Shown here piece by piece: positions 4,113 through 59,449 of a DNA stretch of 64,000 nucleotides (positions are counted from its first letter, which is position 1; every line of letters starts with the position of its first letter). The position numbers and the translations under genes are program-made. Where the stretch lies: NCBI RefSeq assembly GCF_030684315.1, contig NC_081375.1, forward strand, positions 32,539,073 through 32,603,072, given 5' to 3'. Source of the stretch: Stegostoma tigrinum (taxonomy: Eukaryota). The notes below the pieces were generated by a model. That model did no database searches, was not told the origin of the DNA, and saw nothing but the letters and a program-made list of their open reading frames with translations.

Positions 4113-4435
4113 CTCATAGAATCCCTACAGTGTGAAAACAGGCCTTTTGGCCCAACAAGTCCGTACCAACCTTCAGAGCATTCCACCCAGAACCATCCCC
4201 CTATAACCCACTTCATCTACACATCCCTGAACACAACAGGCAATTTACCATGGCCAATCCACCTAGCGTGCACATCTTTGGACTGTGGGAAGAAACCAGA
4301 GCACCTGGAGGAAACCCATGCAGACATGAGGAGAATGTGCAAACTCCACACAGACAGTTGTCCAAGGCAGGAATTGAACCTGGGTCCCTGGCACTGTGAG
4401 GCAGCAGTGCTAACCACTGAGCTACCGTGCTGCCT
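4113..4435 (-). mobile_element. V-domain tRNA-derived SINE (HE1-like)
   Basis: Minus strand: tRNA-like head GGTAGCTCAGTGGTTAGCAC...GGTTCAATTCC, V-domain TGTGTGGAGTTTGCACATTCTC...CCCACAGTCCAAAGATGTG, CR1-like tail CTGTAGGGATTCTATGA. Confidence 0.9.
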
Positions 4436-9700: not shown

Positions 9701-10962
9701 GAACATCAGAGCAAAAGCTGAAGAAACAGACAAAGTCATAAAGTGACAAGGCAATGACAAAACATATGTTGACAAGTGACTGTACACATAGAAATTGTAA
9801 TTTGAATTTGGAGACTGGGTTTGCATCAAACAAACTAACCTTGGCAACAGCCTTATATTATCTCTTATGGAGCTGCTCTCTGTGCTGTGTGGTATGTGTT
9901 AGTTAAGCCTGTGGATGTCCTTACAAAAGAAACTGAAACATGCAGCATGCCTGAGAAAGGAAACGTTTTAAAAGCATGTAATAACCTCCAGTTCACACAT
10001 AGAATCCAATGTGTCGTCTCTACATACATCTTATGCATGAAACTGTATAGGATCACTTGCATTCTTTTCTGTGTCTCACTTATTTCCCTTCTTTTATTGA
10101 TTTCTTCTTATATAATTTCCTTCCCCTTATGTTAGTTTATTTTTAGTTGTTTTTCATCAATATAAACATGATAGTTACAGCATGTAGATTTTGACAAAAT
10201 GATTACTGCATTGCTTGATAAATCAATTTCTATAGAACTATTTTTGTATCTGAGTAGAGAGTATGCACAACAGTCACATTGAATCTTTCTAACATATATC
10301 ACCAGAGTAACCTTAAATATGGATTGCTTCATATCGTTCATGCTTTCTTCCAGTCAAATTGCCTCTCACCTCACCTGACATATCATCTCATTAAGTTCTC
10401 AGACCATTATAAATGTACATTATCATTATCACCTATTCCTACGCACAAAGCGGGAATACTGATTATAAATTAGGCCATAAATGAAAGAATGGAAATGGGG
10501 AAAAACATGACTAAAATGATAATGTTATTTTGATAGCCTTTAGTGAGCCAGTACTCTCAGTGGAGCACTGAAAGCATCAGCTTTCTGTTTCCTTTCCTTG
10601 CTCTGTTTCATAAAACTGAAGAACAGTTCTTCAAATATGGTAATTCAGTACTGTATAAATTTTTTACTAGAAAAACATGATTTCCAATTGTATCATAGGT
10701 GACATGTACCATGTAAAGAGGTTGAATCAGACAATCAGCAATGTTGCATTTTCAACGAGACAAGCTGAGACGAATTCTGGCCTTTTCATAACAATCCTTT
10801 TGTGTACACTCCTTTGAACATATATAATTGCTGCCAGTACAGAATATAAATACTGCTAAAAGGGGATATGAAGTTCAAGCTTTTCATCTTGCACTCGTCA
10901 GGAATAAGCTGCAAAAAACAAACTTGCAAAATGTGACACCATGTTAGCAACAAGAAAAGCAG

Positions 10963-11880
10963 TTGCTAATCTGCTCCCACGATAAGACATTCCACTCCCG
11001 CACATCCCAGATGTCCAAGTTCTTCAAGGACCGCAACTTTCCCCCCACAGTGATCGAGAACGCCCTTGACCGCGTCTCCCGTATTTCCCGCAACACATCC
11101 CTCACACCCCGCCCCCGCCACAACCGCCCCAAGAGGATCCCCCTCGTTCTCACACACCACCCTACCAACCTCCGGATACAACGCATTATCCTCCGACACT
11201 TCCGCCATTTACAATCCGACCCCACCACCCAAGACATTTTTCCATCCCCTCCCCTGTCAGCTTTCCGGAGAGACCACTCTCTCCGTGACTCCCTTGTTCG
11301 CTCCACACTGCCCTCCAACCCCACCACACCCGGCACCTTCCCCTGCAACCGCAGGAAATGCTACACTTGTCCCCACACCTCCTCCCTCACCCCCATCCCA
11401 GGCCCCAAGATGACATTCCACATTAAGCAGATGTTCACCTGCACATCTGCCAATGTGGTATACTGCATCCACTGTACCCGGTGCGGCTTCCTCTACATTG
11501 GGGAAACCAAGCGGAGGCTTGGGGACCGCTTTGCAGAACACCTCCGCTCAGTCCGCAACAAACAACTGCACCTCCCAGTCGCAAACCATTTCCACTCCCC
11601 CTCCCATTCTCTAGAGGACATGTCCATCATGGGCCTCCTGCAGTGCCACAATGATGCCACCCGAAGGCTGCAGGAACAGCAACTCATATTCCGCCTGGGA
11701 ACCCTGCAGCCATATGGTATCAATGTGGACTTCACCAGTTTCAAAATCTCCCCTTCTCCTACTGCATCCCTAAACCAGCCCAGTTCGTCCCCTCCCCCCA
11801 CTGCACCACACAACCAGCCCAGCTCTTCCCCCCCACCCACTGCATCCCAAAACCAGTCCAACCTGTCTCTGCCTCCCTAA
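10963..11880 (+). pseudogene. 5'-truncated PLE ORF: RT C-terminal/linker region plus GIY-YIG endonuclease
   Basis: Linker CNRRKCYTC, NVVYCIHCTRCGFLYIGET (GIY-YIG with CxxC), RFAEH, VANHF, RRLQEQQLIFRLGTL..GIN; no RT core and no true ATG start. Confidence 0.9.
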
Positions 11881-16769: not shown

Positions 16770-17150
16770 AATTTCCTTATTTATTTGTCCAAGTGATGTG
16801 ATTATAGCTGGCTAGGCCAGCACTTATTGGCCATCCCTAAATGCCATAGAGATGGTATTGGTGAGCTGCCTTCTTGAACAATTACAATCCTTAGGGTGGA
16901 GGTAGACCTACAATAGCATTAGGAAGTAAGTTCCAGGATTGTGACCCAATAAAAGTGAAGGAATGACACTATATTTCCAAATCAAGATGGTGTATGTCTT
17001 GGACAGGAATTTGCAGGTGGTGGTATCCCAACGTTTCTGCTGTCTTTGTCCTTCTGAGATAGAGTGTTTGAAAGATCAAAGTGTGAGTTGATGCACTGCA
17101 TCTTGTAACCAGTACACATGGGCTGTCAATGTGCATTAGTGGCTTACTCA
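16770..17150 (-). mobile_element. CR1/L2-group LINE 3' end (second family)
   Basis: Plus strand GGCCAGCACTTATTGGCCATCCCTAA...GGTGAGCTGCCTTCTTGAAC is the reverse complement of the family tail. Confidence 0.8.
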
Positions 17151-19978: not shown

Positions 19979-22680
19979 TTTGACCTCTCTGACCTTTCAC
20001 TGTTCAGACCATTGCTCTTGAATCATGGTTTTCAATGATGTTTATATTCTACAGAACAGAGTACTCTTCAGACACAGCCAGAACCTAAAGTCTTGAAATC
20101 AGAGAGCCTGTGGCCTGTGTCCATGTGACAAAATTGGGGGATGTGACGTATTTCCATTACTGATCCTTTAAAGGGTTATAAAGGGTGACAGCTAGTAGGT
20201 AAGTGACTGAGAAGGTTGGATCTGCATTGCATGGTAAATGTGACTGATTTTGGTGGGGGAGAGGTTGTCATTTTTATATTTAGCCAACAGTTCAAGCAGG
20301 TTTCAATTCTGCTCCCTTCTCTTGGTTAAGTATTAACAAAAATAAATTTGAACTGTCTAAAATCTCCAACTCTAACTCAAACTTTGTTTTCTTCTGTGGA
20401 GGGGCCCAGATGCCATATAATCACTCATCAGAAGTTTCAGCTTTTCAGCCAATTACCGACTGTTCAGATACCAGATGTCCTGGGTTAATGTTTTTTGTTT
20501 TCACTTTCAATCTTGATGAATTGTTGAGCTTGTCACCTGACCCAATGTGCAAGTAGCCTCCGTCCATAATTGCAGGAAAGGTCAAGAGCATGGGAAAAAA
20601 GAGCTAAGAGTTTAGAACCACAACAAGCCCTGTTTCATAACATTCTTCCTCATGAAGCTGTTGGATGCACAGAGTCATGCATGTGGCGTTGAAGTGGATG
20701 AGATTGTAGCGTTTTGGTGAGGTCAATTTGCCCGAAAATCTTGCAGACTTTTGCTCTTCTGACTGTGTCAAATACCTTGGAGAGACCTATGAAAGCAAGC
20801 TGCAGAAATATAAGTTGTTTTCTACCATTCCTTTGTGTTTGGAAAAGATGATATCTACTGTTAATATGCTGGCATGGAAACTGCACTGTACATACAAGTA
20901 CATTCTATCTGCAAGTAAATGGAACCTTTTATATATGGCCTCGGTAAAGAATTTCCCCACGACATTGAGGAATGCGATTTTCTGCAGTTTTTGCAACCTG
21001 CTCTCTCATGTTTTGTTTTGTACATTGTGATGATTTTTGTGTCATGCCCCTCTGGTAGACTGCAGTTTACCCTCCAGTAGAGAAAGAGAAGATCGTAAGA
21101 GGAACTGTAATGGATGGGACTTCACATACTTGAACAGTTGACTGAGTTCCAAACTTGCTGGCTGCCTTTCAGTTCACAAGGCACTTTACAGTCTTCTTGA
21201 GCTAAAGTGATGAAGGTGCTTCAACTAACTTAGCCATGACAAGAAGCTGCAGGAGAGCATCTGTTTGAGGAATGTCTGCCTCACCAGCAGTACAACTCAC
21301 AGTCGTTTCCAGCTCAGCAGGACATCAGGTTAATGTTGTTGCTAAGTATTTCACTGTTGTCTATTGGGTGATGGCAGTGTAAGTGCCTTTTTGACGCCTC
21401 ATAGGTTTCCATTACTAAGGCAGTTTGGATTTCTTGACATATTTATGAACTATCTGTTTGAAATTTGCCATATCTGTCTTAGCTAATTTTAAGTCATGCA
21501 GTGTTTTAGCTCTTGAGTTTTATACTGTAGGCTTGTTTTTCTTTTCCATCAACGGCAGATAGCACGTCGTCTAATTAAATCTCAGGACCAGCCTCGTAAC
21601 CTAGTAATTTCCCAAGTCATTGATACTAGCATCAGTATTTCCCAGTTAATCTTTGAAAAGTACTAGCGTTTGATGCTATTACTTGTGTAAGAAAATTTAA
21701 TGTGTGGTGGGCCACTTTGTCTAAAAATGAAAATTTCAGGGGTGCACCCTCAGTCAGTTGGTGACAAAAGAGCCCTCAGGATCACAATCTGCACTGTGCC
21801 TAGTGTGGTTCTCAACAACATTAGGCATGATCACATTTTGTCATGATGACCAGGTTTAGTTGATGCCAATGTGTAAACTTTGGGGAAGACTACTCTGAAA
21901 GCTACTAGTTCATTCAGAACAAAATGCGCAAGAAGGTGTCATGGACCTTAACCACCACATGATGACTGGCATATTGTTCATCGAGCACTTTCTGCTGTGA
22001 CATGTGCAGTAAAGCCAACTGGGATGACTAGTTCCTTGACATTTTAGTTTTTTTTCTCAAAATATCGTATAGGGAGTAACAACAATGCTCCATTGCAATG
22101 TGGTTGCATTTGTGACAATACTTCGGCATTAAGAGGTGTATTTTGTCCTTTTTTTTATGAAGAGAGATTGAGTCAGAGGTGCTGAAAGTTATACCAAATC
22201 AATAAAGTAAGAAGCTTGTGAGGCCTGTTTTTTTTTGAGTTGGGACAATAGAAGCAGCATGTAGGGTAGGGTCAAGCTCGCACAGAACCAGGGTTTTAGT
22301 TTAACTTTCAGTAGCTGAAGGGGTTTGGAAGCTGGTGTACATTTCTCCCTGCTACAGAGCTTTCTCTCTCTCTCTCTGAGTTTTCTCTTGATGTTCTTTC
22401 CTCCTCAACTGGAGAAACATTGCATGTGAAACAATCTATTTTACTGGATCTGCCTTTGCTAAGGGAGTGTTTATGAGACGTTACTATCCTGGAACAGCTA
22501 ATCAGGGGCAGTTAACATATATATTATCTTGTTAAATATTTCATTGGAGTTACAGTAAAGTTTTTTTTATTCTTACTTTGTCTGTATTTTAGCTGAAATG
22601 TAAGGATAATTTGTTTTTTGCTTCAAGCCAGGTAGTTTAACCAGTCAAATTGCTTCTGGAACACAATCCCTTATATTTGC

Positions 22681-23862
22681 AGTGATCGAGAACGTCCTTG
22701 ACCGTGTCTCCCGTATTTCCCGCAACACATCCCTCACATCCCGCCCCCGCCACAACCGCCCAAAGAGGATCCCCCTCATTCTCACACACCACCCTACCAA
22801 CCTCCGGATACAATGCATCATCCTCCGACACTTCCGCCATTTACAATCCGACCCCACCACCCAAGACATTTTTCCATCCCCACACCTGTCTGCTTTCCGG
22901 AGAGACCACTCTCTCCGTGACTCCCTTGTTCGCTCCACACTGCCCTCCAACCCCACCACACCCGGCACCTTCCCCTGCAACCGCAGGAAATGCTACACTT
23001 GCCCCCACACCTCCTCCCTCACCCCTATCCCAGGCCCCAAGATGACATTCCACATTAAGCAGAGGTTCACCTGCACATCTGCCAATGTGGTATACTGCAT
23101 CCACTGTACCCGGTGTGGCTTCCTCTACATTGGGGAAACCAAGCGGAGGCTTGGAGACCGCTTTGCAGAACACCTCCGAACAGTTCGCAACAAACAACTG
23201 CACCTCCCAGTCGCAAACCATTTCCACTCCCCCTCCCATTCTTTAGATGACATGTCCATCATGGGTCTCCTGCAGTGCCACAATGATGCCACCCGAAGGT
23301 TGCAGGAACAGCAACTCATATTCCGCCTGGGAACCCTGCAGCCTAATGGTATCAATGTGGACTTCACCAGTTTCAAAATCTCCCCATCCGCAACTGCATC
23401 CCTAAACCAGCCCAGTTCGTCCCCTCCCCCAACTGCACCACACAACCAGCCCAGCTCTTCCCCCCCACCCACTGCATCCCAAAACCAGTCCAACCTGTCT
23501 CTGCCTCCCTAACCGGTTCTTCCTCTCACCCATCCCTTCCTCCCACCCCAAGCCGCACCCCCATCTACATACTAACCTCATCCCACCTCCTTGACCTGTC
23601 CGTCTTCCCTGGACTGACCTATCCCCTCCCTACCTCCCCACCTATACTCTCCTCTCCACCTATCTTCTTTACTCTCCATCTTCGGTCCGCCTCCCCCTCT
23701 CTCCCTATTTATTCCAGTTTCCTCTCCCCATCCCCCTCTCTGATGAAGGGTCTAGGCCCGAAATGTCAGCTTTTGTGCTCCTGAGATGCTGCTGGGCCTG
23801 CTGTGTTCATCCAGCTTCACACTTTATTATCTTGGAATTCTCCAGCATCTGCAGTTCCCATT
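22681..23862 (+). mobile_element. Young Penelope-like element (Neptune type), 5'-truncated
   Basis: 276-aa GIY-YIG ORF remnant 22682..23512, nearly identical to the 10.9 kb copy; TSD ATCC(C/G)TTATATTTGC at 22666-22680 and 23863-23877. Confidence 0.93.
23740..23769 (+). ncRNA. Minimal hammerhead ribozyme motif (variant GAAATGTC)
   Basis: CTGATGAAGGGTCTAGGCCCGAAATGTCAG. Confidence 0.6.
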
Positions 23863-26479: not shown

Positions 26480-28465
26480 CTTTTAGTGGAAGAAGAGGAC
26501 AAAGCTACAGTGTTAATTGAATACCTTGGATTTATCTTCACTAGATAAGAAAATTCTGGAAATGATGTGATAAAGGAGAAGGGAGCTATAATATTGCATA
26601 AGTTAAAAACAGATGAAGAAAAGCGACACTGAATGGTTACAGTATTGAACTTACAAGAGTCACTTAGACTGGATGGATTACATCTAATGTTCTGGAGGTT
26701 AAAGTTTGGGCAGCAATCTGCCAGTCTGCTTTAGATATACGGGAGATGTTAGAGCAATAGAGAGTTCAAAATGATAACTCCCAACTTTCAAGTAAGAGAA
26801 GAGGGGTAAGCCCAGAAATTGCAGGTCAATTAGTCTAACATCAGTGTATGGAAACCTATTACAGACAGTAATCTGGGACAAAATTATTTCGTGTTTGGAC
26901 AAATGTAATTTAATAAATGAAAATCAGCATAGATCTGCTCAACCCAAATTGTATATGATTAACTTTATGAGGTTAATTGATGTAATTAGTTTCAGGATTG
27001 ATTAAAATAATGCAGATAATGTTGTATATGTGGACATTCCAAGATTGTTGATAGATTAGTACACAAAAGACTTCTCCAAAATATTAAACAAGCAGTTATT
27101 TCATGGATAGGACAGAAGGCAGCAAATGCTAGTGAAATGTTATTTTCCCACCAGAAGAAAATGTACAATGGTGTTCTTCTGAATTGATATTTATTGAATT
27201 CTCCGTTTGGCATGTATGTCCTGTACTTGAGTATACAGGGTATAACTTTAAAGTTCACAGATGACTTTAAACTTCAAAGTGGTAAATAACAAAGGATATC
27301 ACAGAAATCAGAATAACCTGGACCAACCAAATGGGGAGACACCTGACAGGTGAAATATAGATCAGCAAAGTAGGAAACAATTCATTTTGGTAGAAAAAGC
27401 AAAATAAATTAAATGACATTATTGTAAAGTGATGCGGGGAGAAAGAGTCAGATAGATTCATAAGAGTTAGGGTGGAAGGATATGTTAAGAAGGTTGTTAT
27501 AATAAAAATGGAATCCTTAATTTTATTAATAAAGAAATAAAGTACAAAAGAATGGTGGAAATAGATCCAAAAGGGAATTGGATAAATAATATTATAACAG
27601 GTAACATTCAAGTCACAGAAATCACACACAATGACCATCTCCAATAAATGATAATCTAGCCACCACCCTTGACATTCAGTGATGTTACCATCACTAAATC
27701 ACACACTATCAACATCCTGGGAACTACCATTGATGAGAAACTGAACTGGACCAGCTATATAAATACAGAGGCTTCAAGAGCCGGTCAGCGGCTTAGGAGT
27801 CCTGCAGCAAGTAACTCACCTCCTGACTTCTCAAAGCCTGCCTACTGTCTATGAGGTACAAATCAGGGTTGGGACAAATACTGTCCACTTGCCTGGCTGA
27901 GTGTAGCTCCAACAACATGCGGGAAACTCAACATCATCTTGGACAAAGCAGCCCGTTTTGATTGACAACACATTCACAAATATCTGCTCCCTCCAGTACC
28001 AATGTTCAGTATCAGCAGTGTACCATTTACAACGTGCACTGTAGAATACACCAAGGCTCCTTATACTTTATGAACCTTACGGCCACTTCCATCTAAAAGG
28101 ACAAATACAGCAGATACCTGTGAACACTACATATGAAGTTCCATTCCTAGTCATTCACCATCTAGATATGGAAATATATTACCATTCCTTCAGTGTTGCT
28201 ATGTCAAAGTCCTGGAATTTCATTCACAAGCAGTTCAAGAAGGCAGCTCACCATCACCTTCTCAAGGGAAGCTAGGGGTAGGTTATAAATGATAGTCCAG
28301 CCAGTGACACTCAGATCACATGAATGAACTTTAAAAATATTGTTGAAAGAATAGATTTACATGGCAATAGGGAAAGAGCAATGGAATGGGACTGATTAAA
28401 TAGTTGTAACTGAGTTCTCGCAGACACAGTTGGCAGAATAGTCTTCTTCTGCATCATGCTAATAT
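26480..28465 (+). mobile_element. Old CR1 LINE ORF2 remnant, interrupted by a second LINE at ~27600-28335
   Basis: Degenerate KRGKPRNCRSISLTSVYGNLL and VVYVDIPR RT motifs; CR1 tail resumes at ~28340. Confidence 0.65.
27603..28335 (+). mobile_element. CR1/L2-group LINE 3' portion (second family)
   Basis: TINILGTTIDEKLNWTSYINTEASRAGQRL, then tail GGCAGCTCACCATCACCTTCTCAAGGG...ATGAATGAAC. Confidence 0.85.
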
Positions 28466-31160: not shown

Positions 31161-32042
31161 TCAGCCGATTGACAAGCAACATGTGTAATTCCTTTTAATG
31201 GAACAGGGTCTTTTTTGTTTCGATTCATTCAAGGGTTGAGTTTTTCCAAGCATTTATGCAGACCACACATTGCCCTTGATGCTGCTGAATGTGCAAATTA
31301 TATGTAAAAGACTGCCTTGAGGGTGAATGACAGGGGATAGAGGGAGGTGAGCAGAAACAGGGTCAGTTGCAGCAGCCATGGTCCTGCCTCCACGAGGAGG
31401 TGGCAGTGGGTGAGGGCAGTTGCTCCCAGTCCTAGCCACCCAGTTCCTCCATTCCCGGCCTTACCCCACTCTGGCCTCTAACCCACCCAACATGGTGATG
31501 TAATGTCACAATATGTATAATTTCCTTCCTTAAAGGACGTTAATGGATGAGATTTGTTTTTAGAACAGACTGATAGGTTCAATTACTAAGCCTAGCTGAC
31601 ATGTGCAATTCTCCCGTCTTTGCCTTCGTACCCAAATTCTCAAATTCCAGAAACGTTGTGGTGAGAGCTTCTGCCTCCCCAACCATAGATTCCTTTAGTG
31701 GATTACAGTGTATTCCATCCCAGATAACTGGTTCATCTTGAGGGCATCAACATATGCTGGAACAGATTGTAAACACTAGAGTTTGATGAGTAAGGGAGTA
31801 ACCTTTATGGGTTAATTGCTTTTGTAAAAAATATAGTATTGCTTGCAATCAGCATTTATCTTAAATTTACTGCTTAAGTTGAACGTTCTTCCAGGTTATG
31901 CAGGCTAAACAAACCCGCTGTCTGAAAGCAGGTGAAATTAGTTTATCAAATCAAAATCTAATTCTGAGAGGCTCTTGTGACACAGTGGTAGTATGCTGAC
32001 CTCTGAATTAGGAGGCCAAGCAGCATCTCAGGAGCACAAAAG

Positions 32043-32072
32043 CTGACGTTTCGGGCCTAGACCCTTCATCAG
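32043..32072 (-). ncRNA. Minimal hammerhead ribozyme motif
   Basis: Reverse complement of CTGATGAAGGGTCTAGGCCCGAAACGTCAG. Confidence 0.75.
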
Positions 32073-33017
32073 AGAGGGGGATGGGGAGAGGAAACTGGAA
32101 TAAATAGGGAGAGAGGGGGAGGCGGACCAAAGATGGAGAGTAAAGAAGATAGGTGGAGAGAGTATAGGTGGGGAGGTAGGGAGGGGATAGGTCAGCCCAG
32201 GGAAGACGGACAGGTCAAGGAGGTGGGATGAGGTTAGTAGGTAGCTGGGGGTGCGGCTTGGGGTGGGAGGAAGGGATGGGTGAGAGGAAGAACCGGTTAG
32301 GGAGGCAGAGACAGGTTGGACTGGTTTTGGGATGCAGTGGGTGGGGGGGAAGAGCTGGGCTGGTTGTGTGGTGCAGGTGGGGGGAGGGGACGAACTAGGC
32401 TGGTTTAGGGATGCAGTAGGGGAAGGGGAGATTTTGAAACTGGTGAAGTCCACATTGATACCATTAGGCTGCAGGGTTCCCTGGCGGAATATGAGCTGCT
32501 GTTCCTGCAACCTTCGGGTGGCATCATTGTGGCAGTGCAGGAGGCACCTCCTGCACTGCCACAATGATGCCACCCGAAGGTTGCAGGAACAGCAGCTCAT
32601 ATTCCGCCAGGGAACCCTGCAGCCTAATGGTATCAATGTGGACTTCACCAGTTTCAAAATCTCCCCTTCCCCTACTGCATCCCTAAACCAGCCCAGTTCG
32701 TCCCCTCCCCCCACTGCACCACACAACCAGCCCAGCTCTTCCCCCCCACCCACTGCATCCCAAAACCAGTCCAACCTGTCTCTGCCTCCCTAACCGGTTC
32801 TTCCTCTCACCCATCCCTTCCTCCCACACCAAGCCGCACCCCCATCTACCTACTAACCTCATCCCACCTCCTTGACCTGTCCGTCTTCCCTGGACTGACC
32901 TATCCCCTCCCTACCTCCCCACCTATACTCTCTCCACCTATCTTCTTTACTCTCCATCGTTGGTCCGCCTCCCCCTCTCTCCCTATTTATTCCAGCTCCC
33001 TCTCCCCATCCCCCTCT

Positions 33018-33047
33018 CTGATGAAGGGTCTAGGCCCGAAACGTCAG
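33018..33047 (+). ncRNA. Minimal hammerhead ribozyme motif
   Basis: CTGATGAAGGGTCTAGGCCCGAAACGTCAG. Confidence 0.75.
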
Positions 33048-33257
33048 CTTTTGTGCTCCTGAGATGCTGCTTGGCCTGCTGTGTTCATCCAGCCTCACAT
33101 TTTATTATCTTGGAATTCTCCAGCATCTGCAGTTCCCATTATCGCTGAATTAGGAGGCCTGGGTTTATGTCTCACCTGCTCCAGAGGTGTGTAATAACAT
33201 CACTGAGCAATTTCATTATAAAACGTACAAAAATAAATCTATTTTGGGGGGTGGGAT

Positions 33258-35502: not shown

Positions 35503-35667
35503 GATAAGAGATAATGGGAACTGCAGATGCTGGACAATCCGAGATAACAAAGTGTGGAGCTGGATGAACACAGCAGGCCAAGCAGCATCTCAGGAGCACA
35601 AAAGCTGACGTTTCGGGCCTAGGCTCCTAAGATGCTGCTTGGCCTGCTGTGTTCATCCAGCGCCACA
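35503..35667. mobile_element. Short PLE fold-back insertion
   Basis: Minus arm ends inside HHR stem II (…TTTCGGGCCTAG), then a plus arm; TSD CTTCAGCAATC(T/A)CAAA at 35487-35502 and 35668-35683. Confidence 0.85.
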
Positions 35668-36299
35668 CTTCAGCAATCACAAAATCGGGTCCTGGAACCA
35701 TATGAGGAATTTTCTGCTTTTTGAGTTCTCTGCCTGAAGATCTCCATGGTGGATAGGGCAAGGTAGCATGTCCTGAGGCAACACCAACAGAAACTGGAGT
35801 CAAGCCCAATGCTGTTGACAATAATCTGATCTAAACTGGTGGTCCAGTCATCTCAATGTAACAACCTTTCATGTAATCAACTTCCTGTGGCAACATAGAC
35901 TTCCACCTACATGTTGTAGTCCTGGAACTGGGAATAGTAATGGTAGTGACTCCAATTACTCATTCATTACATGACTTACCAGGAACGTCTCCAGCTTTGA
36001 CCATCGGCCACTGGACGAATTTAGAAGTTGATACTCAATCCACTGAACCATGCAATTTTTAGGCTGAGTGTAGGTTGCAACAGAATTTATTTTTTGGAGG
36101 ACTCCTCGCCATAAGGGCTATCAGGTCTTTTTACTCTATCTTATCAAACTCATCTCATGAACTACCACCCCACTTCCAATTCTAACCTAATCTTACTGTA
36201 CATCATTCACGGAACAACTTGTCGATGCTAGGATATCTCAGAATTAGTTAGCATCTTGTGCTCCCACATCTTTTTCAAAAGACTGTTGAGCACCTGGAC

Positions 36300-39844: not shown

Positions 39845-40051
39845 GATAACACAGTGAGGAACTGGAGGAAAACAGCAGGCCAGGCAGCAGAGGACCAGGA
39901 AAGTTGATGATTCAGATCGGGAGCTGATTTCCAAAGAAGGGTCTCGACCCGAAACGTCAGCTTTCCTGCCCTCTGATGCTGCCTGGCCTGCTGTGTTCTT
40001 CCAGTTCAACACTGTGTTAACTGTGACTCCAGCATCTGCAGTTCTTACTAT
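39845..40051. mobile_element. Older PLE-subfamily fold-back insertion with HHR variant (39931-39960)
   Basis: AAGAA-GGGTC-TC-GACCC-GAAACGTCAG; inverted arms; TSD CTCATCATG at 39836-39844 and 40052-40060. Confidence 0.75.
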
Positions 40052-41338
40052 CTCATCATGAAGCTGTCTTCTCCAAATGGATGACGGACTAAAAAAATTG
40101 AGAAGACCCTAGGAAACAGGTCTATAATAATTTGGGTGGAGAACATGATGCTGCCTTCATAACTGTAATGAAAGCACTATCTGTCTGTTCATCCACCGGT
40201 ATCAGTGAACCACCCTCAATTATCATGGTAGTATTTTTGATTTTGTTCCAGTTAACTAATGTACCATATTTAAGCTGCTGCTTCTTAACTTGAATAAACT
40301 CTCTGAAAATTCCTTAAGAATGATCAAATGCTTTTACTAGTTAACAGTATTCAGGAACCCCTAAACTTTCACACAATTGATTGAGTAAATATTGGAATAT
40401 GGGTCTTGTTGAACCCATATGGTCAGTCCAGTGTAGCGCAAGTTGTTTCTTACTCTCATCAAAGACAGGGCAACTTACCTTATCCCTATGTGTTCTCTTC
40501 CAAATTGGCACAAAGCCTGGTGACTTCTTTTTTTAAAAACAGCTGTTAAGATTAAATTTTCTTTCCAGTTTCTTTGCTCTTTTAGCTCGAGAGCATTTGA
40601 GCAAATCTAGTGTCTTTATAGATAACAGCGCAGCAAATCGGTTTTGTCGCTGTGATAAATAATGGAGTAGTGACAATTATCAATCCACAAGAAAAAGTGG
40701 CCTTCCCAGTTGCACAATTCCAAGGTGCTTTACAATGAGCCATATACAATAAATAAGTCATCAAACAGCAAGGGAAATTGCTTCTCACTTTCCATCCATT
40801 GAGGACATTAGAAATAATTATTATTGATTGTTAGACAGCTGGGAAAGAGCTTAGGTTGTCTTCAAAGACATTTGCTTGTTGTGACAAATTTGCCATTGCA
40901 CTTGAGCTGCCCACACCAGATATAATTACATTTCTGCAGCTATTTGCCAAGTTGGGTTACATGATATTGACAAAGCTGAATGATCTTGTTACATTAATTT
41001 CTAAAATCTTATCAGTTTACAACACACAATGATGCAGTCTGGCCTACAGAAACTGTACTGAAGATATCCCAAGCTAATCCTTTCCCTCTACAATTTCCCT
41101 ATAGTCCTGTAACTTTCCTCAATTCAAATACTGATCTAATTTCCCTTAAATGATGCAATGGTTTACATCTCAAATATTACCTCTCATAAAGTGTGTCATA
41201 CTGAAGCAATTCTCCAAGTAGATATATTTTCTCTGACCAGTCTTCATCAAACCCTCAATGACAATGTTAAATTGGCCTTCCCTATTTCTTCCATTACTCA
41301 TTTACGCTGGCTTTCAGTCTCTCAACATAACAATGTTC

Positions 41339-41864: not shown

Positions 41865-42302
41865 ATATATAACAAAGTGTGGAGCTGGATGAATACAGAA
41901 GGCTAAGCAGCATCTTAGGAGCATAAAAGCTGACGTTTCAGGCCTAGACCCTTCATCAGAAAAGGGGGATGGGGAGAGGGTTCTGAAATAATTAGCGAGA
42001 GAGGAGGAGGTGAATTGAAGATGGATAGAGGAGAGGATAGGTGGAGAGGAGGCAGACAAGTGAAGGAGGCAGGGATGGAGCCAGTAGAGGTGAGTGTCGG
42101 TGGGAAAGTAGGGAGGGGATAGGTCAGTCCAGGGAGGATGGACAGGTCAAGTGGGTGGGATGAGGTTAGTAGGTAGGAGATGGGGGTCCGAAACGACAGC
42201 TTTTATGCTCCTAAGATGCTGCTTGGCCTGCTGTGTTCATTCAGCTCCACACTTTGTTATCTCAGATTCTCTAGCATCTGCAGTTCCCATTATCTCTGAT
42301 GC
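41865..42302. mobile_element. PLE fold-back insertion (diverged subfamily); HHR motif on minus at 41930-41959
   Basis: Minus arm ~41869-42187; plus arm starts in the HHR (CCGAAACGACAGC); TSD AATCAAATCAA at 41854-41864 and 42303-42313. Confidence 0.85.
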
Positions 42303-56948: not shown

Positions 56949-58341
56949 AAATGCATGCAAGTAAGGTAGATACCACTTAATGGTGAGATTCTAAAGTCAC
57001 CATTTAAGATTTGCTGGGAAAATTGAGAAAAAACCTCAACATTGGAGATTCTGATGTTTTCCTTCTCTCTGTATTTTTCCACCTGAACTGCCAATTGTCA
57101 CCCCACACTAGGTGGGGGAAAATTCCACCCAATGAGTTTTTCTCAGTGCAGTTTTCAACATGAAGAAAGAGAAAGACAAAATGCCAGGAATGATTCAGAT
57201 ACAAGTTAACAAAATTATAAATGAACATCAGAAAACAGTATTTATTTATGTGAATTAGAGGAAACGAAGGATTCTATTGCAATGAATGAGAAGACACATC
57301 CTAAAGAAGCATTTAAAAGTTATTGAAAATAATGCTTCAACAGATAATAGATTTTAAATTTTAAAATTAAACAGTCTATAAAAACTGCAGGGAAAGCTAT
57401 GGGTAACTGCATTATATCACAGTTTAAAACATAATTAAGATAAATAACTCTGTGCATGACCTGGTTTTCAGTTGTAAATGCTAAGTACAACGGTGTGCAG
57501 AGAAACATGCACTTATACATCCTTGAAAGTATACTGATCTTTTTTCAAGAAGGGATCAGCCTCAGACATGTCAAACAGATTTTCAAAATCTCTCAGTGAT
57601 GTAATTTTTTTCCTAGGCCAATGATCAGGCTGATTTTCTGGAATTGGTGTAAAAATCAACAGGTCTAATTCACTGTAAACATTTCACTGCGATCAGATTA
57701 AGTCCACCCTCACATTTTACTCTGCCTTGGTGCATTGCCATGTGCTCTCTAGTCTAGTTTGTGCCTATTTCTGAGACCTCATGAAAGTTGCAGAAGCTGA
57801 CAGGAAATAATACTGTAAGATTTGGTAAGCTGGGGAAATTTAAAGAAATGTACCTTTTTTGTTAAATAATTTCAGAAATTTAAATAAAGCAACTAAAACA
57901 CTTAAAAGTTATGCCAAATTTCCAAGACAAGAAAAATTACATTTAGATATATGATTAATCACAATAAATTGAAACATATCTACCTAGCAACAAAGTTAAA
58001 GCAATTATTGGCCATACCACTAATTTTCCCAAATGCATGGGAAAGCAACAGTATTCTTTGAAGCACAGGCTGTATATACACTAACCATGGAAACAGCCTG
58101 ATTACTTTGTAAGAATTATTATTGATAACAACAGGTACAAACACCGTGCAAAACTGAAGAAATCACACAAAGTATTTATTCAAGCATTTTTGCAGCAATT
58201 CATCAACTTCATGCTATGAAATAAAACAAAAGGTGCATTTATTTGTGCTTAATGTAAAACTTTGACCACATTAAAGCCTGATGTTAACTGCATCAGATTG
58301 CTCTAAACTCCAAGACACAGAATAGGCTGATCTGAGCTGGT

Positions 58342-58488
58342 AATAAAATGTGAGGCTGGATGAACACAGCAGGCCAAGCAGCATCTCAGGAGCTTTTGTG
58401 CTCCTGAGATGCTGCTTGGCCTGCTGTGTTCATCCAGCCTCACATTTTATTATCTTGGAATCTCCAGCATCTGCAGTTCCCATTATCT
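58342..58488. mobile_element. Minimal PLE hairpin insertion
   Basis: Perfect 53-bp inverted repeat 58341-58393 / 58400-58452 with loop TTTTGT; TSD CTGATCTGAGCTGGT at 58327-58341 and 58489-58503. Confidence 0.93.
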
Positions 58489-59449
58489 CTGATCTGAGCT
58501 GGTTGCAACTTTTCAGGTCCAGGCAACCAACAGCAAATATTCAAATTACCACACCCTGGCAATTTGGCATGCAGGCATGATAAAAGTAAAGCAGTGAGCA
58601 GATATTTATCCCAGCGGACTTTCACACTGCAGAACACATTGAAAGCCTAGGATTTGTTATTTACTCGATCATTCTTTCACATCCACCTGTTGTTCCAATC
58701 AAATTGTGCGCAGTGTAACAATGAGTGGATAATACTCTCACATTAAATGTAACAGAAAATCTTTGCCTCTATCTTAAAATGATGCTGCTGGGCCAAGAAT
58801 AGTGCTTTTTTTTTGTATAGTTTGCTTGCACCTCCTATGCCGACATTATTGCTTTTATTTTCAGGAGGCAATTTGAAAACAACGCACATTGAATGTTCTG
58901 CACTTAACAGTTTCAACCCTTCCATGCAATCAGCTGTCGGAATTTTGTAATGTACAGTATACTACTTTCATATCCTGCATGAGCAATACTTTAGTATTTT
59001 CATGGTGAGATTGTAATTTCTATCATTGAACTTGCTGGTTATTATATTTTGATTAATGTTACCATTGCAAAGGAAATTAAAGAATATTTTCCAATGTCAG
59101 GTGACTACAATGTTTCAAATACAAAGTTTATAACATTGTTATGTTCTGGGACAACAATTTCCGGTAAAATAGAGGAATGAAAAGGCAACTCCTATAAATT
59201 CTACCCTCCAACAATCTTGGGTGGTTGATTTTAAAGGTTAAAGGGTGAACAGGAGGCTGACAAATGGGAAATATGTGACACCTGGTTTAAAACTTAGAGC
59301 CGCTAGCAGCTTGACTGTTAAACATAATGAATTACATGAATAATCTAATTAAGAAGTAGCAAGTCAGGGGAGAGAGTAAATTGGGGAGATGATGTAATTA
59401 AGGAACCAGCTTGTCAAATAAACATCCGGAATTACGTACATTGACTGCT

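Follow-up and report, generated by a model that had tools for sequence, protein, structure and literature searches.

Recurrent hairpin insertions of a Neptune-type Penelope-like element in the zebra shark genome, with junctions at a predicted hammerhead cut site

The window is the whole 64,000-nucleotide stretch of the zebra shark (Stegostoma tigrinum) genome that was analysed (NC_081375.1, forward-strand positions 32,539,073 to 32,603,072), and coordinates are given as positions within it. The focal insertion is a 162-base hairpin which consists of two back-to-back copies of the 3' end of a Penelope-like element (PLE). Element positions were numbered from the predicted hammerhead cut, +1 being the first base past GAAACGTC and -1 the base preceding it. 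The inverted arm (58341..58393, minus strand) covers element positions +10 to +62 with its outer end at an RT start site designated A, and the sense arm (58391..58491, plus strand) runs from +1, at the predicted cut, to +101 at a second RT start site, B. A sequence-only reading of this DNA had described a perfect 53-bp inverted copy within a 15-bp TSD and both were confirmed: positions 58341-58393 and 58400-58452 (53 nt each) are 100% complementary across a 6-nt loop (58394..58399, plus strand, from arm comparison and fold), and the 15-nt direct repeat (TSD) lies on the plus strand at 58327..58341 and 58489..58503, where it overlaps the inverted arm by one base and the end of the sense arm by three. 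The segment between sites A and B (58453..58491, plus strand) corresponds to the PLE 'tail' of PMC8557442 and PMC11167929 and is found on a single arm only.

The sequence AGCTTTTGTGCTCC had 13 matches in the window (two or fewer mismatches, 0.78 expected), and in the 12 other window copies it directly follows GAAACGTC or a one-letter variant of it. The earlier proposal that the sense arm starts at the first bases after the cut site agrees with these copies, but the AGC at 58391..58393 (plus strand) belongs to both arms, as +1..+3 of the sense arm and +12..+10 of the inverted arm, so from the focal locus taken singly the sense start could be anywhere in +1..+4. The hairpin has a predicted folding energy of -108.5 kcal/mol (z -21), and its sole Rfam match, mir-3150 (47 bits, cut-off 100), is attributed to the hairpin shape. 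A long-read fold-back artefact was considered and judged unlikely on the basis of the TSDs, the A and B ends and the short-read outer junctions: contigs from runs X6 and X8, which may represent the source sample, matched both outer junctions without differences (58150-58364 and 58468-58700), no contig covering the hairpin in full.

Judged by its motifs, the repeat is the 3' pseudo-LTR (pLTR) end of a Neptune-type EN+ PLE carrying a putative minimal hammerhead. A longer copy contains the 3' part of the PLE ORF (10948..11877, plus strand) with a CX4CxxC linker followed by a GIY-YIG endonuclease of the CCHH type, whose two cysteines are flanked by a GIY-like motif and YIG and whose two histidines lie further on (PF01541, E 0.00077, below the curated cut-off). 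As in EN+ PLEs, RT motifs (DKG, YIDD) together with GIY-YIG at the C terminus were found in one frame; at loci outside the window, YIDD and the endonuclease share a frame in L279:7694-9379 and DKG was found in L272. RVT_1 (E 2e-4 and 1.5e-6) and GIY-YIG (E 8e-4 and 2e-3) matches were all below curated cut-offs, and with Pfam at E 0.001 the endonuclease in window positions 22610-23509 was missed and a second copy matched weakly. The tandem or inverted pLTR layout, the 30-40 nt tail and the TSD are likewise those of EN+ PLEs, and TSD length in the family has a mode of 14 nt and is mostly 12-16 nt. A CX2-5CxxC linker preceding the endonuclease defines the Neptune/Nematis clade (PMC8557442), and it is by this predicted linker motif that the element is assigned to the Neptune type. 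There was no full-length intact PLE copy among the loci retrieved.

The hammerhead core was numbered on an intact read-through copy (33018..33045, plus strand) with the predicted cut between 33045 and 33046. In 119 copies the non-CpG positions of the core (CUGANGA, GAAA, NUH) were 92-99% invariant, while N7 varied (T/A 73/24). PMC4209133 lists for minimal hammerheads a bulge that follows position 9, the G10.1-C11.1 pair and a helix III that is palindromic, and the element shares the core, the extra base between 9 and 10.1 (the A bulge at -21), G10.1-C11.1 (G-20 with C-9) and the palindromic 15.2-16.2 (ACGU in helix III) with those described there. Helix II has three pairs as a monomer and twelve as a self-dimer, the region self-pairing at 12 of 12 positions with a predicted -22.6 kcal/mol. 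Helix I has only two pairs, unlike the four to five of the consensus, and position -30 alternates between C and U with pairing to G+2 retained. Two pairs are also found in the Drosophila virilis Penelope variant (PMC4209133) and the element was therefore filed as an atypical variant. No hammerhead model matched in an Rfam search of the window with E up to 1. The predicted active fold is unfavoured (-2.2 kcal/mol, against -10.0 for a rival stem closing at +2) and, together with the short helix I, this means that ribozyme activity would need help, as reported for the green anole Poseidon element PAc. The minimal hammerheads of PMC4209133 had low activity in vitro, and its available text gives no evidence of activity in vivo.

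Genome-wide counts showed that the focal junction is not a singleton, as its 24-nt sequence occurred at 340 exact sites, and nearly all of the 70 loci examined had their own TSD. The variable arm lengths that had also been predicted were not seen, with the inverted arm ending at A in 50 of the 70 and at B in 9. In a sister junction the two arms are fused through the AGCT at +1; this 34-nt palindrome pattern was found at 560 loci, while the matched 4-nt palindromes on either side, ACGT at -5 (34 loci, CpG decay allowed) and GGCC at +28 (21 loci), were 16 and 27 times rarer. Here and below, totals are whole-genome counts, whereas tallies by position were made by eye among the matches listed, the first 100 rows or, where a pattern is self-complementary, 50 loci; the listed matches lie on the first contigs. 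The expected enrichment over other fold-back points was borne out by these palindromes but is less clear upstream of the cut, where fold-backs with both arms past -2 (2942) are similarly numerous to those within the 30-nt zone downstream (3451), indicating that inverted copies can form without cleavage. Among the 50 downstream matches listed, 13 were perfect AGCT palindromes, 4 were of focal type and 3 had centres longer than 20 nt. The GGCC at -13, within the helix II quasi-palindrome, accounted for about 4 of the 50 upstream matches listed against 13 of 50 for AGCT, a gap of only about fourfold with wide intervals.

Arms of any kind that start at +1 numbered 2741 and those starting at -3 numbered 218; among the 100 +1 matches listed, about 62 were palindromes and 6 were of focal type. 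After removal of both classes 3532 arms remained, and among the 100 matches listed 8 arms started at -3, none at -2, 6 at -1, 18 at +1, 2 at +2, none at +3, 9 at +4, 6 at +5, 17 at +6, 15 at +7 and 16 at +8, with 3 set aside (indels in full copies). The six rows at -1 are the number that chance extension of +1 ends would give, and a script recount of 116 fetched arms, including extra targeted loci, had the same shape as the hand tally. In the upstream set (7225 arms), 76 of the 100 matches listed fell at -22..-11 and 11 at -10..-3, with 13 set aside as indels. Junctions thus crowd the helix II quasi-palindrome (-22..-11) and are sparse at -10..-2, for which microhomology is the sole explanation offered. 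In total, +1 stands at about six times the regional baseline and far above its immediate neighbours. Without the microhomology-favoured classes the excess is only about 1.5-2 fold, roughly 640-800 arms at +1 against about 450 per position at -22..-11 and +4..+8. The set at +9..+28 (13,679 arms) gives a rough baseline only, because other subfamilies and internal deletions make up about a quarter to a third of its rows. The inverted partner lay downstream of the cut site in 19:4 of the +1 arms against 13:17 of the +4..+8 arms (p 0.005; 13:4 and p 0.036 without near-palindromes), a bias which fits expectation if both cDNAs copy one RNA, cut or uncut.

We consider that this pile-up of cDNA ends at +1 probably reflects run-off at the 5' end of ribozyme-cut RNA, and hammerhead cleavage is here inferred from a genomic footprint. 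The proposal that the self-cleaved 3' product served as template gains from the position of the pile-up, although cleavage is not necessary for inverted copies. The strongest rival retains priming from both target strands and ascribes the pile-up to RT stalling at a stem formed by CUGAUG (-28..-23) and CGUCAG (-4..+2), or to another RNA end such as a transcription start, with the AGCT and AGC microhomologies amplifying +1; we regard it as rather unlikely, though to be taken seriously. The stem forms in the minimum-energy structures predicted for a 115-nt fragment and for the dimer, but in a 251-nt context its pair probability is 0.04-0.06. Stalling should also leave ends at +3 or +2, yet among the 100 matches listed only 0 and 2, respectively, fell there, against 18 at +1, and the rarity of the equal palindromes on either side argues against it. 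For a transcription start, an excess of cap-type G before +1 would be expected and was absent (A 20, G 17, T 12). In favour of this rival, junctions elsewhere follow microhomology, as at the helix II quasi-palindrome, and the +1 peak did not replicate in older subfamilies: in a noisy by-eye tally of their heterogeneous sequences (1852 arms), about 12 of the matches listed were at +1, about 10 at +2, 9 at -3, 7 at -1 and 7 at +3, with no clear peak at +1. The ribozyme was moreover dispensable for insertion in vitro in the reported PAc experiments (PMC11167929).

Further junction types were observed beside these. Head-to-tail joints of site A or B into +1 with 1-4 added bases (L006, L079 and short-read contigs) fit template jumping that followed run-off at +1, and short A-runs directly before +1 (L144, L318, L327) may be left over from transient AGCT pairing and extension that preceded the final join.

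The outer ends of the arms bear on how the inverted copy arises. In 50 of the 70 focal loci examined (of 340) the outer end was B (+95..+101) on the arm carrying the loop and A (about +57..+71) on the inverted arm, the arrangement was reversed in 9, and the other 11 were 7 B/other, 2 A/A, 1 A/other and 1 other/A. Head-to-head pairs were filtered for at least 85% identity and a position away from the locus edge, which 181 of 208 fetched pairs passed; most came from targeted junction searches, for which outer ends were not a selection criterion. These comprised 148 AB, 22 B/other, 5 AA, 4 A/other and 2 BB pairs. Where both ends lay at A or B, 148 of 155 pairs were A+B, compared with 49% expected from single copies (p 8e-37), which ended at B in 62 cases, at A in 47 and elsewhere in 2. 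Ends at A did not differ between inverted arms and single copies in position (median 62 and 63, p 0.17) or microhomology (0.5 and 1.2 nt, p 0.19; 38 and 37 ends with a called TSD). At four subfamily sites discordance between arms was 3, 2, 7 and 1, against 17.7, 28.2, 26.0 and 16.0 expected if the arms were independent, with L015 and L241 as clear exceptions whose arms are of different subfamily type. The shared alleles suggest that both arms were copied from the same RNA template; snap-back copying or later homogenisation would also produce them. Beside these ends, L022 and L331 run past site B (beyond +104) with the same sequence of about 25 nt, probably a template region downstream of the RT start sites.

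The sequence-only reading had the inverted arm primed by snap-back, that is, a single cDNA running off at +1, folding back on AGC, synthesizing the entire inverted arm and then joining the TSD. This reproduces the focal locus base for base, the 3-bp fold on AGC is the predicted MFE structure at the cDNA end, and the common alleles of the arms would follow from it. Short snap-back inverted arms do exist, since in L238, L228 and L021 they abut the TSD directly at non-A positions, and in L316, L324 and L331 a two-base GG remnant is retained before +1; snap-back is therefore real in part. That it is the general route is refuted, however, because in 9 of 59 focal-type loci the inverted arm outruns its supposed template by about 35 nt, as the tail is absent from the loop arm there and self-primed copying cannot yield it. 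In 62 of 70 loci, moreover, the inverted arm had A or B as its end and showed low, TPRT-like microhomology, the few loci with arms of different subfamily type speak against it, and at the focal locus, which ends at +62 with a 1-nt overlap, the second strand would have to stop at A. The loop was on the B arm in 50 of 59 focal loci (50:9, p 5e-8), compared with about 31:28 in other pairs (by approximate subtraction), which suggests an ordered process, as snap-back would be, or that the B-primed cDNA finishes first. Snap-back after full-length cDNA synthesis has been described for R2 (PMC11371274), but as the origin of the entire inverted arm we judge it very improbable.

Also very improbable, and given marginally less credence, is a scheme in which a double-stranded hairpin cDNA forms and, ahead of integration, has one of its strands cut by the endonuclease at A ('EN-mediated resolution', an older account of the tail). 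It accounts for the common alleles and for a one-sided tail on either arm, and A and B both contain ATT, the motif preferred by the Poseidon endonuclease; against it, single copies likewise end at A or B, and PMC11167929 assigns the tail to two RT start sites with extension from both target strands.

The focal junction could also be a later product: a slipped-strand deletion of 8 nt, involving the two AGC repeats in the middle of an already inserted AGCT palindrome, yields exactly the focal sequence. Perfect palindromes are unstable, and the palindrome class is the commoner one (560 against 340). Slippage should, however, strike both sides equally, whereas the loop favours the B arm 50:9, and both arms would still need to begin at +1; we hold it to be the least credible of the explanations considered.

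The reading we prefer, and think probably correct, is that both target strands prime cDNA on one RNA, likely hammerhead-cut, and that the cDNA ends join through AGC. A staggered target cut leaves the TSD of about 14 nt, and the observed ends would result if, in the manner of a dimer, one strand primed at B (about +100) and the other at A (about +63) of a shared RNA. A run-off end ...AAAAGCT-3' could then pair with the AGC at +10..+12 of the partner cDNA to give the focal junction, either directly or after self-folding and extension by a few bases; run-off of both cDNAs would lead to AGCT pairing and the commoner perfect palindrome. Through a brief snap-back the cDNA would gain sense-strand sequence able to pair with the second cDNA, and the join could start from there; sequence cannot separate a join seeded in this way from direct AGC pairing. 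The fuller proposition, that the junctions, thousands in number, record germline cutting by the minimal hammerhead of a metazoan PLE and that a dimer, with one subunit per start site, reverse-transcribes the 3' cleavage product from both target strands, we hold to be evenly balanced between true and false. The coupling of A and B fits the in vitro results with PAc, in which both strands are nicked and extended from two start sites bounding the tail by a predicted dimer (PMC11167929). Counted against the preferred reading are the modest +1 excess, the GGCC at -13, the older subfamilies, the weak helix I and fold, and the read-through copies, about 190,000 in number (extrapolated from 14 matches in 237 kb of flanks), since most copies cross the cut site; so are the dispensability of the ribozyme in vitro and the lack of reads ending at the cut site in the available account of PMC11167929. 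Ribozyme-cut RNA would be a minority of templates.

Several components of the preferred reading are already known, namely inverted truncated copies with a tail, minimal hammerheads, two-site two-strand priming and R2 snap-back. Complex PLE insertions in which a 5'-truncated copy is inverted and a tail of 30-40 bp is present on one side were described by Craig et al. (2021; PMC8557442), who called the role of the hammerhead in EN+ PLEs unclear and ascribed the tail to endonuclease resolution. The present insertions resemble these in the inverted copy at the 5' end, the tail on one arm, the pLTR hammerhead and the TSD, and differ in the minimal size of both copies and in a junction whose position goes with the predicted cut site. 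In vitro, green anole Poseidon PAc nicks and extends both strands from two internal starts as a predicted dimer (Frangieh et al. 2024; PMC11167929). The two RT starts bounding the tail, the use of both strands, the little primer homology and a protein-assisted hammerhead are features in common, but PAc is a Poseidon and not a Neptune-type element, and in the available text of that study cleaved RNA is not reported to be used, nor are the two sites related to the two arms of inverted insertions. Snap-back 5' junctions are also described for R2 insertions templated by ribozyme-cleaved RNA (Zhang et al. 2024; PMC11371274), where the cDNA 3' end likewise self-primes after full-length synthesis and before joining; that engineered system involves one TPRT event and an HDV-type ribozyme, and no further cDNA primed by the opposite strand in the portion of the account available.

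L1 twin priming is similar in that a single RNA is primed by both target strands and the resulting cDNAs are joined through microhomology. Those cDNAs cover adjacent, non-overlapping parts, whereas the PLE cDNAs here overlap fully and have two fixed starts, giving a hairpin. None of the three papers listed for twin priming treated PLEs, and in the open-access literature searched, with most subscription papers and older Penelope work outside its scope, we found no paper which ties PLE junctions to the hammerhead cut site or quantifies A+B pairing; the available text of PMC6431247 added nothing further on junctions.

The finding overall is real, recurrent and mechanistically informative. Cleavage by PLE hammerheads in vivo and the formation of inverted copies appear as open questions in the available text of PMC8557442, PMC4209133 and PMC11167929. 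A one-base footprint in genomic junctions would offer a read-out of germline cleavage, and the strict A+B pairing connects insertions in a genome with the two-site, two-strand priming seen in vitro. If germline cutting and reading by a dimer were true, the role of the ribozyme in vivo and the origin of PLE inverted copies would be settled, and sharp predictions for the existing in vitro assay follow. The route has placed well over a thousand perfect 50-60 bp hairpins in one genome.

A second recurrent centre type with CACCTG inserts (L032, L033, L036, L037, L042) resembles the product of snap-back by a cDNA that ended at +8, the loop being 4 nt. Within the window, further head-to-head PLE insertions were found at 32010-33146, 35510-35670, 41869-42294, 39847-40054 and 1349-2420. 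The 32010 arm in the first of these has a snap-back-like outer end at +35, where GGCC is shared as microhomology with a 15-nt TSD, and the Rfam matches isrG and AS-pc02 (32423-32668, below cut-off) fall on the fold-back centre of this insertion. Self-comparison of the window also revealed other dispersed repeats at 4114-4434, 16790-17063, 22110-22671 and 27681-28195.
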